Part shown: piece after piece, positions 33,030-37,711 of the stretch
How the letters are laid out: each line of letters begins with the position of its first letter
Numbering within the stretch: position 1 is the stretch's first letter
NCBI GenBank assembly: GCA_017994695.1
Contig: JAGOKF010000002.1
Location: forward strand, 21,643-85,642
Direction of reading: 5' to 3'
Source of the DNA: Myxococcota bacterium
Lineage (GTDB): Bacteria > Myxococcota_A > UBA9042 > DTJE01
Length of the DNA: 64,000 nt
The notes under the pieces: model-generated
What the model was told of the DNA's origin: nothing
Seen by the model: the letters and a program-made list of their open reading frames with translations, nothing else
Databases searched by the model: none
Program-made: the position numbers and the translations under genes

Positions 33030-33593
33030 TCAGCGGTCTTCCTGCCCGGACGGGGCGTCGGGGTCGTAGAGGAACAACGGTCCCCGGACGGACTCCTTCA
33101 GTTCCCGCCCGAAGCGCCGTCGCCAGTCCTCCTGGAACAGCCACCGGCGCAGGATCCCGCGAAGCCACAGCACCTCGTCCAGGTTCATCCGGTCCAGCAG
33201 GCGGGGCGGACGGTAGCGCAGGTGCCGGAGTTCCCGGATCGTCTCCTCCGCCCGGGAATCCCTCACCTCGAGGACCTCCAGGGGCACCCCCTCCTCCTCG
33301 GGCCGCTCCACCCGCCCGATGTTCCGGAGGAAGTACTGGGGGCAGAGGTTCTCCAGGTGCCCGTCGATCCCCTCGGGGCGTTCCAGGGCCCTCTGCTGCA
33401 CCGGCCGGACCCGGATCCGCCCTGCGCGCCGGATCAGCCCCCGGATCCGCCGATAGTTCGGGCGGTCCTCGATGGAGGGACGCTCCGGGGTCCTCTCGAC
33501 GGGCAGGGGACGCTCCAGGCGCCCCGCCAGGCGCCGGGCGAAGGCCTCGGGTCGCAGGGTCAGGGGCCCCGGTGTCCGTCCGTCGTGCTCCAC
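33030..33593 (-). CDS. Arg-rich hypothetical protein (last gene of the Ycf46-like operon)
   Basis: No motif was recognised. It sits 15 nt downstream of the DUF2997 gene on the same strand. Confidence 0.4.
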   Translation of the reverse strand: MEHDGRTPGPLTLRPEAFARRLAGRLERPLPVERTPERPSIEDRPNYRRIRGLIRRAGRIRVRPVQQRALERPEGIDGHLENLCPQYFLRNIGRVERPEEEGVPLEVLEVRDSRAEETIRELRHLRYRPPRLLDRMNLDEVLWLRGILRRWLFQEDWRRRFGRELKESVRGPLFLYDPDAPSGQEDR

Positions 33594-33608
33594 CCGGCCC
33601 CCTCGCGA

Positions 33609-33818
33609 CTACTTCTGGCCGACCCGGACGTGTTCCCGTTCGGCCTCGGTCTCCCGGACCTCTTCCTGGTAGTACTCCCCGGTGTGCTCCTGGGCGACCA
33701 GGGCCCCCAGTTCCTCCAGGAACTTCGTGACCTCCTTGCAGGACCGCCCCTTCACGCCCTTCACGCCGAAGGAAAAGGTCCCGTCGGGCCGGATCTCGAT
33801 GTCGATCTGGTGTCCCAT
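33609..33818 (-). CDS. DUF2997-family small protein
   Basis: 'IEIRPDGTFSFGVKGVKGRSCKEVTKFLEELG' matches the DUF2997 pattern. Confidence 0.65.
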   Translation of the reverse strand: MGHQIDIEIRPDGTFSFGVKGVKGRSCKEVTKFLEELGALVAQEHTGEYYQEEVRETEAEREHVRVGQK

Positions 33819-33854
33819 CGATCCCTCCTGGCACGCCCCGGGCCCGGACCCCGG

Positions 33855-34253: not shown

Positions 34254-34262
34254 GATCTTCCC

Positions 34263-35828
34263 CTACATCTCGATCCTCGGAGCCGCCTCCTCGGCCGCCT
34301 CGTCCCCGGCCAGCGAGGCCCGGCGGGCCCGCCCGTTGGCCCAGTCCCGCATCCCGTCGATCTTCTCCTTCATGGTCAGCGAGAGGGGCACCATCTCGGA
34401 AACGCTGGCCAGGATCCCCGCCGTGGACAGGTCCTCGGCCCGGTCGAAGGCGTCGTAGAGGGCGCTGATCACCGCCTGCTCGATCTCCGCCCCGCTGAAG
34501 GCCTGGGTCCGGGCGGCCACCTCGGCCACGTCGAAGGCCCCCGGGTCCCGGGTCACCCGGCTCCGCCGGTTCAGCTTCTCGATCTGGATGCGGAAGATCT
34601 CCGCCCGCTCGGCCGGGTTCGGGAGGTCCACGAAGAAGATTTCGTCGAACCGCCCCTTCCGCAGCAGTTCCGGCGGCAGCATCGACACGTCGTTGGCCGT
34701 GGCGATGACGAAGACCGGACTGGTCTTCTCCTGGAGCCAGGTGATGAAGGAGGCGAAGACCCGGGCGGTCGTCCCGGCATCGGACTCCCCCGAGGACTTC
34801 GTCCCCGAGAAGCCCTTCTCGATCTCGTCCAGCCAGAGGATCGACGGGGCCACCGCCTCGGCGGTGCGGATCGCCCGGCGGATGTTCTCCTCCGAGGATC
34901 CGACGAGGCTGCTGAAGACCTTGCCCACGTCCAGGCGCAGCAGGGGCATCTGCCACAGGCCGGACACGGCCTTCGCCGTCAGGGACTTGCCGCAGCCGGG
35001 GACGCCGATGAGCAGGATGCCCTTCGGCAGCGGGAGTCCGAAGTCCTGGGCCTCCTGGGAGAACGCCTTCTGGCGCTTCTTCAACCAGTCCTTCAGGACC
35101 TCCAGCCCCCCCACGTCGCTCCACTGGGCGTCGGTCTCGTAAAACTCCAGGATCCCCGACTTGCGGATGATGTGCTTCTTCTCGGCCAGGATCGTCGCGA
35201 TGTCGAAGTCCTTCTTGCGCACCAGGGCCTTGCTCAGGACGTAGGAGATCTCGCTCTCGGTGAGCCCCAGGGCCGCGTCGACCACCCGCTTCTTCTGGCC
35301 GGGGTCCTTCAGCATCGTGATCCCCGGACGGGCCTGCAGGGGCACGCTGGCCAGCGTCCGGTCCAGCACCTGCTCGATCTCCTGGGCGGTGGGGAGGTCG
35401 AAATCCACCACCGCCATGTCCTTTTCCAGTTCCAGGGGCGCCTTGAAGACCGCCGACAGCAGCACGATGTGCTTCTTGTAGCGGCTCGACGAGGCGAAGG
35501 ACCGGCACAGGTCCCGCAGGCGCCGGACGATGGTCGGGTCCGTCAGGTAGGGATGGAAGTCCCGCATCACGAAGATGGCGTGGTCCTCGTACCCCTCGAT
35601 GCCGTCCAGGGCCCGGGCCGGGTCCTTCACGTCCTTGGACAGGACGTTGCCCTCCTCCCGGAATCCCTCGGTGCAGGACCAGGTGACGATCTTGCGTCCC
35701 CGATCCCGGCCGATCTCCCGCAGGCGTCCCTCGACCCGCTCCTCCTCGGGGCTCACGATGTAGATCAGCGGGTAGGCCGCCTTGATCAGGTCCGTGATCT
35801 CCTGCGTGCTCGAGACGCCTGTCTTCAT
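34263..35828 (-). CDS. Ycf46-like AAA+ ATPase
   Basis: An N-terminal ~250-aa domain is followed by a C-terminal AAA module: Walker A '[13 protein letters not shown]', Walker B 'ILWLDEIEK', and '[12 protein letters not shown]'. Confidence 0.8.
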
Positions 35829-37711
35829 CCGCCCTCCCGTCCCGCTCCGCCCTCCGCGAGGTCCGCGTCATCGAGGGACTGGCGCAGCACCTGCACGTCC
35901 TTGGCCAGCATGCGCTGCAGGTTCCGCAGCGAGGCGTGGAGTTCCCCGGCGTCCTGGCCCCCGAGGGCCCGCCGGAGGCGATCCGGCCACTCCGCCGGAT
36001 CGGCCCCCAGGGCCTCGATCACCGGCAGGACTTCCCGGATCGTCCCCTGGAGCACCAGCAGGTCCTCCTCCAGGGACTCCACCTGGGCCACGAGCCCCCG
36101 AAGGGCCGGCGAGGCCCCGGCACCGCCCGCCTCCGATCCGCCCTCCGCGGCCTTCCGCTGATCCAGTTCCCGCTGGAGTTCCTCCACCCGCAACGTCAGG
36201 GTCCGCACCTTCTCCGCCGCGGCGGCTCCCTCGGCGGCCACCTGGGCCTGGGTCTCGGTCCCCGCCGCCAGGTCCCGGCGCACCGCGTCCAGGGCCTGGC
36301 TCATGCCCGACACCTTCTCCCGCAGCGCCTCCAGTTCCCGCATCGCCGCCCGGTAGTCCGGGTGGTCCGAGATGTCCTCCTTCTCCAGCCGCCGGACCCG
36401 GGCGGCCTCCTCCAGTTCCCGGAGCCGCGCTTCCAGGTCGTCCCGCTCGGCCCGGATCGCCGCCAGTTCCGCGGCCCCTTCGGCCTGCATGGCCCGCAAC
36501 TCGTCCACCTCGCGGCTCTTCCGGTGGTAGTCGTCCAGCAGCCGCTGCTTCTCCTGCTCCAGATCCGCGATGCCGACGCCCAGGCGGACCTCCCGGATCT
36601 CCCGCTCCTTCCGCTCCAGGTCCCGGCGCATCGACGCCATCAGGTTGCGGTTCTCCTCGATCACCGCCTCCAGGTTCCGCAGTTTCCGCTCCAGGTCCCT
36701 CTGGCGCCCGGCGTCCCCCTTCACGTACTCTTCCAGCCGCTGGGACTCCTCCCGGAGCACCCGGAGGTCGTATTCCCTGCCGTCCAGTTCGCGGCGCAGC
36801 CGCTCGATCTCCCGGTCCTTCTCCGTCAGTCGGACCTTCAGGGACGACATCTCCTCGGAGTTCTGGGTCGTCCGACCCCGGACCGCCTCCAGCTGGGCGC
36901 CCAGGGCCGCCACCTTCTCCCGGAGGTCCGCGGCTTCGGCCTCCCGGTTGGAGAGGTCCGCCCGGGCACCGTCCAGGAGCCCCTGGAGGTGGATGTTCTG
37001 GTCCCGGACGTCCTGGCTCTTCCGGAGAATGCCGTCCATCGCCGCCGCGGCGCTGGCCGCTCGGGACTCGGCGTTCTCGACCCGGCGCTCCGCATCGCCC
37101 AGGAGGCCCTTCAGGTGCCGGACCTCCTCCTCCAGTTCCCGGATCCGGTCCGCCCCCGGTTTCGCGGGGGCCTTCCTCTCGGCCCGGAGGGCCTCGTTCT
37201 CGGCCCGGAGCCGCTGCAACTCCGCCAGCAGCGCCGGGTCCACCCGCAGGCCCGGGTCCAGAATCGGTCGCGGACCGGTCGGCCTCCGGGGGGACTCGTC
37301 CAGCCGCACGGAGGGAACCGGGGACTCCACCCTCTGCGCGACGTCCCGGTCCTCGATGGTGCCGTCCTCGGGAACCCGGATCTCGCGGCTTCCCCGGCCC
37401 GTCCCCCCAGCAGGAGACCTCTCCCGGAAGACCGCCTCGACCTCGCCGAACCGGATCCGGTCCCCGTCCCGGAGCAGCCGCGGCCCGGCCACCGGCTGGT
37501 CGTTGATGCGGCACGGGTTGGTGGAACTCCGGTGGAGGTACTCCCACCCCTCGGGAGTCTTCCGGATACGGCCGTGATCCCGGCTCACCGAGGGGTCTGC
37601 CACCACGATGTGGCAGGTGGGACTCCGACCGACGATGGCCCCTCCCGGAACCTCGGGAATCTCCCTCCGCTGGGGCTTTCCGGAGGCGTCCCTGAATTCG
37701 ATGCTCGCCAT
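35825..37711 (-). CDS. FHA-domain protein with a ~500-aa coiled-coil (SMC-like) region
   Basis: Start at MASIEFRDASGK (cat at 37709-37711). FHA core 'IVGRSPTCHIVVADPSVSRDHGRI'. The remainder is heptad-rich (LRAENEALRAER...). Its stop overlaps the AAA+ gene start by 4 nt. Confidence 0.75.
   Translation of the reverse strand: MASIEFRDASGKPQRREIPEVPGGAIVGRSPTCHIVVADPSVSRDHGRIRKTPEGWEYLHRSSTNPCRINDQPVAGPRLLRDGDRIRFGEVEAVFRERSPAGGTGRGSREIRVPEDGTIEDRDVAQRVESPVPSVRLDESPRRPTGPRPILDPGLRVDPALLAELQRLRAENEALRAERKAPAKPGADRIRELEEEVRHLKGLLGDAERRVENAESRAASAAAAMDGILRKSQDVRDQNIHLQGLLDGARADLSNREAEAADLREKVAALGAQLEAVRGRTTQNSEEMSSLKVRLTEKDREIERLRRELDGREYDLRVLREESQRLEEYVKGDAGRQRDLERKLRNLEAVIEENRNLMASMRRDLERKEREIREVRLGVGIADLEQEKQRLLDDYHRKSREVDELRAMQAEGAAELAAIRAERDDLEARLRELEEAARVRRLEKEDISDHPDYRAAMRELEALREKVSGMSQALDAVRRDLAAGTETQAQVAAEGAAAAEKVRTLTLRVEELQRELDQRKAAEGGSEAGGAGASPALRGLVAQVESLEEDLLVLQGTIREVLPVIEALGADPAEWPDRLRRALGGQDAGELHASLRNLQRMLAKDVQVLRQSLDDADLAEGGAGREGG

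Follow-up and report, generated by a model that had tools for sequence, protein, structure and literature searches.

Ycf46 and Ycf35 are conserved plastid and cyanobacterial genes that are still without a mechanism, the literature found on them giving only CO2-, stress- and clock-related phenotypes. The AAA+ ATPase Ycf46, the DUF1257 protein Ycf35 and DUF2997 form a triad that is already known as a gene neighbourhood (PMC4284462). Here, we analysed a 64,000-nucleotide stretch of DNA from a Myxococcota bacterium (assembly GCA_017994695.1, contig JAGOKF010000002.1; the whole stretch is called the window below), in which five genes at 33030-37711 combine this triad with a long FHA-domain protein and an Arg-rich protein. 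We propose that the operon encodes a phospho-threonine-gated AAA+ remodelling machine, a reading to which we give about an even chance. Relatives of the module are built into gene clusters for contractile injection systems (CIS); this link is a first functional lead on Ycf46 and Ycf35 and makes their function experimentally approachable.

The secretion system of type VI (T6SS) has a threonine-phosphorylation pathway with the kinase PpkA, the phosphatase PppA and the protein Fha1/TagH, alongside the AAA+ ATPase ClpV. To our knowledge, the T6SS is the only one of such machines found so far to be under post-translational control. Pvc15 and Afp15 are the cargo loaders of Photorhabdus PVC and Serratia Afp, and activity is confined to the second of the AAA modules of Pvc15, D1 being degenerate (PMC11495950). 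In the PMC and bioRxiv literature, nothing was found on FHA coupling, on the family of the fifth gene or on CIS embedding, and no paper was found that ties FHA, CIS and Ycf46, DUF1257 or DUF2997 together. An earlier note on this DNA had called the locus a candidate uncharacterised signalling or remodelling system, which is a fair description; no account of the five-gene arrangement was found in that literature.

The operon and its five proteins

All five open reading frames (ORFs) lie co-directionally on the minus strand. Gene 1 (35825-37711) encodes the 628-aa FHA/coiled-coil protein (MBP7124916.1), gene 2 (34263-35828) the 521-aa Ycf46-family AAA+ ATPase (MBP7124915.1), gene 3 (33855-34253) a 132-aa DUF1257 (Ycf35-like) protein, gene 4 (33609-33818) a 69-aa DUF2997 protein and gene 5 (33030-33593) a 187-aa Arg-rich protein (MBP7124912.1). 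The NCBI names of the three accessions are generic only (a ‘Myxococcota bacterium’ metagenome-assembled genome, MAG). Third-position GC content (GC3) was 0.89-0.96 for all five ORFs in a genome of 70% GC, with the pattern GC3 >> GC1 > GC2 as in coding DNA. The junctions, in the order FHA, AAA, DUF1257, DUF2997 and gene 5, measure -4, 9, 36 and 15 nt, and a purine-rich ribosome-binding site precedes every downstream gene: GGGAGGG upstream of the AAA start, AGGAGG within the DUF1257-DUF2997 gap and GAGGGGG before the GTG start of gene 5. The ATGA stop/start overlap of the FHA and AAA genes (35825-35828) suggests translational coupling, and the gene calls of two related loci (L084 and L085) and the ORF calls of a third (L016) show a 4-nt overlap at the same place. 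The tightly spaced minus-strand cluster that had been claimed earlier was thus read directly from the sequence, and an internal promoter or terminator near the FHA/AAA junction, which would have split it, did not appear: scans of 32500-38800 for sigma-70-like promoters and intrinsic-terminator-like sites were empty, although such scans are weak in 70% GC DNA. A scan for a sigma-54 -24/-12 site upstream of the FHA gene, equally weak at this GC content, likewise found none, with matches at chance level. The promoter presumably lies in 37712-37814, the upstream region common to the operon and a divergent TonB-like gene, the extent of this region being set by the likely divergent start. Judged from its layout, the cluster is one operon.

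Gene 2 is collinear with cyanobacterial Ycf46 over residues 9-505 (45-46% identity) and, as the earlier note had described it, has the Ycf46 architecture of an N-domain followed by a single C-terminal AAA module. The AAA core (residues 271-401, nt 34626-35018) matched PF00004 with 105.9 bits against a cut-off of 21.2 (2.7e-30), while AAA_lid_3 stayed just below its cut-off (26.6 versus 27.2 bits) and phrog_8638 covered the full length of the protein (1e-147). The nearest relatives of the module in the PDB were the D2 modules of Cdc48 and VAT (6e-51), and it aligns to both D1 and D2 of Cdc48. Because the Walker A motif GVPGCGKS (G275-S282), the Walker B residues D334-E335, the sensor-1 residue N379 and the Arg fingers R390/R393 are invariant among 21 homologues, gene 2 should hydrolyse ATP and is predicted to be an ATPase of the active type.

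The family-specific N-domain (residues 1-235, nt 35124-35828) gave no domain in a Pfam scan, including no winged-helix, but used alone as a query it retrieved 3,464 representative clusters, mostly of 500-550-aa proteins. Residues 143-222 showed a weak likeness to the AAA lid of the same protein (E 0.0076 and probability 5% in hhalign), this lid-like stretch being the only part aligned, and by eye the strands before it look like a degenerate P-loop domain. These features are suggestive, and the N-domain is likely an inactive D1-like domain beside an active D2-like one.

FHA domains bind phospho-threonine through the Arg of GR, the Ser and His of SxxH and the Asn of an NG loop. In gene 1, the FHA domain (residues 26-89, nt 37445-37636) matched PF00498 with 53 bits against a cut-off of 20.7 (4.7e-14), and a comparison of the translation by eye with this textbook motif found the binding residues present as G-R (IVGRSP), S-R-D-H and the N of S-T-N. 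The phospho-threonine signalling context proposed earlier is therefore upheld, with the domain above its cut-off and the binding residues kept. The description of the rest of the protein as ~500 aa of SMC-like coiled coil needs a small correction: the FHA domain is followed by a Pro/Arg-rich linker (~90-165), a coiled-coil-like region of ~370 aa and, at the C-terminus, a helical segment of ~90 aa, and the matches of the coiled-coil part to SMC, Rad50 and CENP-F models in Pfam and NCBIfam were all sub-threshold. The ATG at 37711 as the start agrees with the 628-aa NCBI annotation and with the N-termini of orthologues.

The assignments of the two small partners could be confirmed, both lying above the Pfam gathering cut-offs: gene 3 matched PF06868 with 70.5 bits against 22.2 (profile positions 1-102 of 103), and gene 4 matched the full PF11211 profile with 47.7 bits against 24.1 (1.4e-12) as well as phrog_23133. 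A PDB sequence search with either protein found no solved relative, and a BFVD search with the DUF1257 fold returned one unnamed viral homologue only. Gene 5 was likewise as described, 20.9% Arg and without a family in Pfam, NCBIfam, PHROGs or PADLOC. Its GC3 of 0.91, its 26 clusters of homologues (none with a Pfam domain, one named Myxococcota) and its conserved motifs (PQFFLRN-x-R-x-E, Y-x-PP-x-L and W-x-R-x-FG-x-E-x-K...GP...YDPD) indicate at the sequence level a real, narrow, lineage-specific family. The AlphaFold2 model of gene 5 is helical and of low confidence (pLDDT 62, pTM 0.20), which would fit a protein that folds on a partner.

The complete order of long FHA gene, AAA gene, DUF1257, DUF2997 and gene 5 family was also found in six other loci, L001, L003 and L016 from the genome collection and L083, L084 and L085. 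Since it recurs at 54-85% AAA identity to the window copy (85% in L083, 75% in L084, 65% in L085), we regard the five-gene layout as a selected unit. The flanking sigma-54 activator and TatA/TatC genes are kept in L083 and L084, the latter also keeping the TonB-like gene, so that the locus is a vertically inherited chromosomal one.

Distribution of the module and its place in injection-system clusters

A scan of one genome per species gave at least 600 candidate stretches, at least 597 of which were confirmed, and the loci described in detail are the best 80 of these at least 597 species-level matches, each with at least 44% identity to the window ATPase over nearly its full length. The matches come from Myxococcota, Spirochaetota, cyanobacteria, Firmicutes, methanogenic archaea, KSB1, Planctomycetota and others. 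Full-length homologues were also found in cluster-O mycobacteriophages (Corndog gp96) and in a streptococcal satellite (Javan368), where the surrounding genes encode hypothetical proteins and DUF1257 and DUF2997 were not detected. The earlier note had the triad known mainly from cyanobacteria and plastids; because it is spread over at least 597 species genomes and reaches into Firmicutes, archaea and phages, and because of the many N-domain clusters, it cannot be called chiefly cyanobacterial.

Three formats were seen. In cyanobacteria, a 117-aa gene (cluster 4) precedes the AAA and DUF1257 genes, with DUF2997 elsewhere, in agreement with the three-gene Synpcc7942_0416-0418 operon (bioRxiv 10.1101/2025.07.21.665879). 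In Firmicutes, archaea and Gastranaerophilales, a Fer4_12 radical-SAM-activase-like gene is followed by AAA and DUF2997, without DUF1257. Myxococcota and their relatives have the long FHA protein, AAA, DUF1257 and DUF2997. Overall, DUF2997 lay near the AAA gene in 38 of the 80 loci. The neighbourhood census for FHA partners that had been suggested proved positive: in 35 loci, none of them cyanobacterial, Firmicute or archaeal, an orthologue of the long FHA protein with the same N-terminus lies directly upstream of the AAA gene, its end at most ~100 nt from the AAA start. In a neighbour-joining (NJ) tree without support values, the ATPases of stand-alone, CIS-embedded and spirochaete loci fall together, apart from the cyanobacterial and Fer4_12-type ones, and all members of this group except two from spirochaetes have a long N-terminal-FHA gene directly before the AAA gene. 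The window ATPase falls in this FHA-coupled group of the unsupported tree and shares ~45% identity with cyanobacterial Ycf46, which does not bear out its earlier label of cyanobacterial-type.

Outside the FHA-coupled group, the pairing of Fer4_12 (PF13353) with a Ycf46-type ATPase was seen in L028, L029, L031, L033, L036-L038, L052, L055, L060, L061, L066, L070, L071, L076, L077 and L080; DUF2997 accompanies 14 of these 17 loci and DUF1257 none (0/17). This pairing and the cyanobacterial DUF2997-ycf35-fed7 cluster hint at an iron-sulfur link for the family. In KSB1 (L025:7326-13624) and Scalinduaceae (L064:4570-11572), three tandem Ycf46-type AAA+ paralogues surround one DUF1257 and one DUF2997 gene, which suggests hetero-oligomeric rings.

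In Kofleriaceae/Haliangiales MAGs, in L018 and in two spirochaete MAGs, the module stands at the 3' end of CIS clusters. The Kofleriaceae/Haliangiales order is hub, spike, PAAR, gp25, Baseplate_J, P2_I, four to five FHA proteins, AAA, DUF1257, DUF2997 and DUF4157. L009:288-14722 begins with Baseplate_J, Tail_P2_I, a conserved 500-aa protein (c9) and five FHA proteins, the last of which has 852 aa and an N-terminal FHA domain, and continues with AAA, DUF1257, DUF2997, a DUF4157/extracellular-CIS (eCIS)-core protein, a pentapeptide-repeat protein and a TPR protein. A Hanks-type Ser/Thr kinase and a ~240-aa protein (c40) follow on the minus strand (L009:15856-18170), with equivalents in L005, L011, L014 and L023. 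Upstream of the module, L162:221-21261 holds a gpD-type hub, two gpV-type spikes, PAAR, gp25 and Baseplate_J, while the Spirochaetales locus L015 (1-12187) also encodes a sheath and a tube of the gp19 type. The AAA gene of L015 and L017 is preceded by a Fer4_12 gene and separated by 5-7 kb from the FHA genes upstream of it.

As an independent test, a metagenome scan was centred on c9 (loci L086-L165), counting the 21 loci with at least 9.5 kb downstream. The AAA gene was present in 19 of these 21, and an FHA array begins in nearly every c9 locus with more than 1 kb downstream. CIS clusters with an FHA array, a Ycf46-type AAA+ ATPase, DUF1257, DUF2997 and DUF4157 thus appear to form an undescribed large clade of soil metagenomes, Kofleriaceae/Haliangiales and spirochaetes, often with a Ser/Thr kinase nearby. 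The L019 cluster encodes two different AAA+ ATPases, an 832-aa Cis15/Pvc15-like protein with a winged-helix N-domain and two AAA modules (L019:11988-14486) being encoded immediately after DUF2997; because this canonical Cis15-like ATPase is present too, the Ycf46-type ATPase is a further component, distinct from the known eCIS loader.

In the window, the module occurs in stand-alone form. Its gene 5 occupies the slot after DUF2997 that DUF4157 occupies in CIS-type loci, and a local motif, PQ-x-x-LR-x-x-x-R, is common to gene 5 and to c40, the neighbour of the kinase (hhalign 84%, E 7e-6); a reverse iterative search did not recover this link, and the relationship is tentative. The one CIS-like trace in the window is a DUF4157/eCIS-core domain encoded at ~50000-50516 on the plus strand (PF13699, 5e-23), ~12 kb from the operon and just upstream of an RseP-like M50/PDZ protease gene (50308-52284), and the same order of DUF4157 then M50 was seen in L084 at 4787-7121. 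In Leptolyngbya, ycf46 has a sheath gene and two tube genes (L051:1527-4344, minus strand) ~6 kb upstream, on the strand opposite to its own, which may be a coincidence or a further cyanobacterial CIS link.

Among the neighbours of the operon, the sigma-54 activator named earlier was confirmed (PF00158, 2e-49); the TonB-like gene had no Pfam match in the window, and only its syntenic counterpart in L084 matched TonB_C. An Rfam scan found no structured RNA in the operon, the sole match being a tRNA-Pro (TGG) at 32009-32084 on the plus strand. Since this tRNA is located within the listed ORF 31964-33028, at its 5' end, the start of the cation-efflux-like gene must lie further downstream than 31964; this gene converges on the operon, with its stop 1 nt from that of gene 5. 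From its translation, the 253-aa protein encoded at 30118-30879 (minus strand) carries long AKAPAKAP-type repeats of Ala, Pro and Lys at the N-terminus and, at the C-terminus, a C4 zinc finger like that of DksA/TraR (CESCGNPI...CIVC). A BatA/VWA protein and a MoxR-type AAA_3 ATPase at 44264-48673 (minus strand) form a Bat/aerotolerance-like cluster that is unrelated to the operon.

Possible functions of the module

From the genes, their domains and conserved residues, the synteny and the CIS embedding, we infer a mechanism in which gene 2 would work as a hexamer and DUF1257 and DUF2997 would be its ancient small partners, as cofactors or adaptors. The FHA/coiled-coil protein would be a long adaptor, translationally coupled to the ATPase, whose FHA domain would read phospho-threonine written by a Hanks-type kinase encoded elsewhere and would thereby recruit or license the ATPase at a phosphorylated target; with its long helical body, it would keep the FHA head and the ATPase tens of nanometres apart. 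The mechanism would involve physical contacts among the five proteins and a dependence on phosphorylation, and gene 5 would be a lineage-specific client or accessory factor. In its CIS-embedded form, the module is likely to take part, under control by phosphorylation, in assembling the injection apparatus, in handling or loading its cargo or in taking the apparatus apart, and by analogy with Fha/PpkA and ClpV of the T6SS and with Pvc15 it probably controls one of these steps. The target of the window copy may be a CIS encoded elsewhere or another phosphorylated assembly.

Several observations weigh against a phospho-threonine-gated remodelling machine, and in particular against a simple unfoldase. 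Pore loop 1 of gene 2 reads S-L-V-G versus M-W-F-G in Cdc48 D2 and is non-aromatic; over 106 family members the position is L, M or I, with Tyr in only 7. A Leu at this position, as in the weakly gripping D1 ring of Cdc48, means that processive unfolding is not assured. No invariant Thr offers itself as a dock for the FHA domain, T212 being the sole Thr specific to FHA-coupled ATPases and standing in an unremarkable context. Neither the 64-kb window nor the six other stand-alone loci, searched within 10 kb, showed a kinase homologue (no search was aimed at PP2C), no target was found, and the folds of the small proteins were uninformative. Iterative searches seeded with proteins from L009, L015, L022 and L162 showed sheath, tube, hub, spike, PAAR, gp25, Baseplate_J, P2_I and c9 to be absent from the window, and the same genes were absent within 10 kb in six other stand-alone loci. 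In addition, the NJ tree carries no support values, and in L084 an opposite-strand gene lies between DUF1257 and DUF2997, so that a single transcript for all five genes is not obligatory.

In an alternative explanation, which we hold possible but doubtful, the window operon acts in trans for a CIS encoded elsewhere in the same genome, as an accessory module which loads cargo (Pvc15-like), licenses assembly (T6SS Fha/PpkA-like) or recycles the sheath (ClpV-like), with the Arg-rich protein as cargo or chaperoned client. The orthologous module lies physically within the CIS clusters of sister lineages (the 19 of 21 loci above), the NJ tree puts CIS-linked members on both sides of the stand-alone clade, gene 5 holds the position of the DUF4157 putative cargo, and the window has its own DUF4157 gene 12 kb off. 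The Arg-rich, low-confidence N-terminus of gene 5 also recalls the disordered N-terminal signals read by Pvc15 (PMC11495950). However, there is no CIS structural or c9 homologue in the 64 kb or near the six stand-alone loci, the stand-alone form has conserved housekeeping surroundings, and with a Cis15-like ATPase beside the triad in L019 the triad is not simply the CIS loader.

A second explanation, which we likewise hold to be a minor possibility, is a general stress-response chaperone for protein quality control whose remodelling activity would be induced by severe stress, darkness or (p)ppGpp, as supposed for the cyanobacterial Ycf46 operons; the FHA protein would only add a kinase input, and there would be no link to CIS. 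It agrees with the core chromosomal position of the window locus and with the collinearity to cyanobacterial Ycf46 and the retained DUF1257 partner, and the three-gene ycf46 operon of Synechococcus 7942 is induced by severe oxidative stress in a (p)ppGpp-dependent manner (bioRxiv 10.1101/2025.07.21.665879). This explanation nevertheless leaves both the constant long-FHA coupling of the subfamily's operon and its near-constant membership in CIS clusters unaccounted for, and the promoter scans found no stress regulator or promoter at the operon.

An anti-phage defence or abortive-infection system around an IetA-like AAA ATPase seems very unlikely to us. The AAA module matched PADLOC IetA (2e-25), TRIP13 and NCBIfam IteA (5e-20), and the ATPase, DUF1257 and DUF2997 have homologues in phage protein families, the ATPase also in mycobacteriophages and the satellite. 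But these matches are limited to the generic AAA core (71.9 bits versus an NCBIfam cut-off of 510), the FHA, DUF1257, DUF2997 and gene 5 proteins had no PADLOC match, the operon holds no nuclease, protease or other effector, and its synteny is that of a conserved housekeeping context rather than a variable island. Chance adjacency of five unrelated genes with gene 5 as a high-GC artefact, spurious long ORFs being common at 70% GC, is practically negligible and was ruled out by synteny, the order being kept in seven loci down to 54% AAA identity, with the FHA/AAA overlap and the GC3, homologue clusters and motifs of gene 5 against it as well.

The proposal of a phospho-threonine-gated remodelling machine has consequences for both fields. 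One branch of Ycf46 has gained a dedicated phospho-threonine adaptor, which provides a testable regulatory input and a testable protein contact, and the same branch is built into the CIS clusters of soil Myxococcota and spirochaetes, which suggests a large ordered assembly or its cargo as the class of client. For CIS, the four to five FHA proteins and the second, non-Cis15 ATPase point to post-translational control. In its most far-reaching form, which we consider rather improbable, the module would be the phospho-threonine-controlled assembly, loading or recycling engine of an undescribed CIS clade of Myxococcota and spirochaetes, a counterpart of Fha/PpkA and ClpV of the T6SS, and the window copy would either power a CIS whose genes lie elsewhere or have descended from such an engine and been repurposed. 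Were this the case, the whole Ycf46/Ycf35 family, plastid genes included, would be remodellers of large protein polymers, with a mechanism open to study in a system with a visible read-out.

Comparison with known systems

The closest described loci are those of cyanobacteria and plastids (Synpcc7942_0416-0418, Synechocystis ycf46 and the DUF2997-ycf35-fed7 cluster), with the same Ycf46, Ycf35/DUF1257 and DUF2997 families, the same N-domain and single AAA module and DUF1257 directly downstream. They differ from the window operon in that none of the cyanobacterial Ycf46 loci examined has an FHA partner, DUF2997 does not adjoin ycf46 and another small gene lies upstream. The window operon, for its part, has no photosynthetic context and belongs to a separate group in the unsupported NJ tree.

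As in the T6SS, the loci of the CIS-type relatives combine the genes for an FHA reader and an AAA+ ATPase with those for a contractile phage-tail-like machine, and a Hanks kinase is encoded there too; the likeness is one of functional analogy. In contrast to the double-ring, ClpB-like ClpV, the window ATPase is a classical-clade, single-module protein of the Ycf46 type, and the baseplates of the CIS relatives are of the eCIS/phage type (Baseplate_J, P2_I, gp25, gp19 tube) and not TssE-K. The searches of the window found neither injection-system genes nor a kinase homologue.

Pvc15, Afp15 and Cis15 are likewise classical-clade AAA+ ATPases at the 3' end of CIS operons, encoded just before putative payload genes, and the degenerate D1 and active D2 of Pvc15 resemble the possibly degenerate N-domain and active module of the window ATPase. 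However, Pvc15 has ~700 aa with an extra N-terminal domain before D1 and D2 (~700-830 aa in the Cis15 class) and has no DUF1257, DUF2997 or FHA partners, whereas the window protein has 521 aa, one PF00004 match and no winged-helix N-domain; it is not an ortholog of Cis15/Pvc15, both types coexisting in L019. Cdc48, p97 and VAT are the closest solved relatives of the AAA module, and the window protein would share with them the principle of a hexameric remodeller that adaptors steer; it differs from them in having only one active ring, a pore loop 1 without an aromatic residue, an unrelated N-domain and small bacterial partners.

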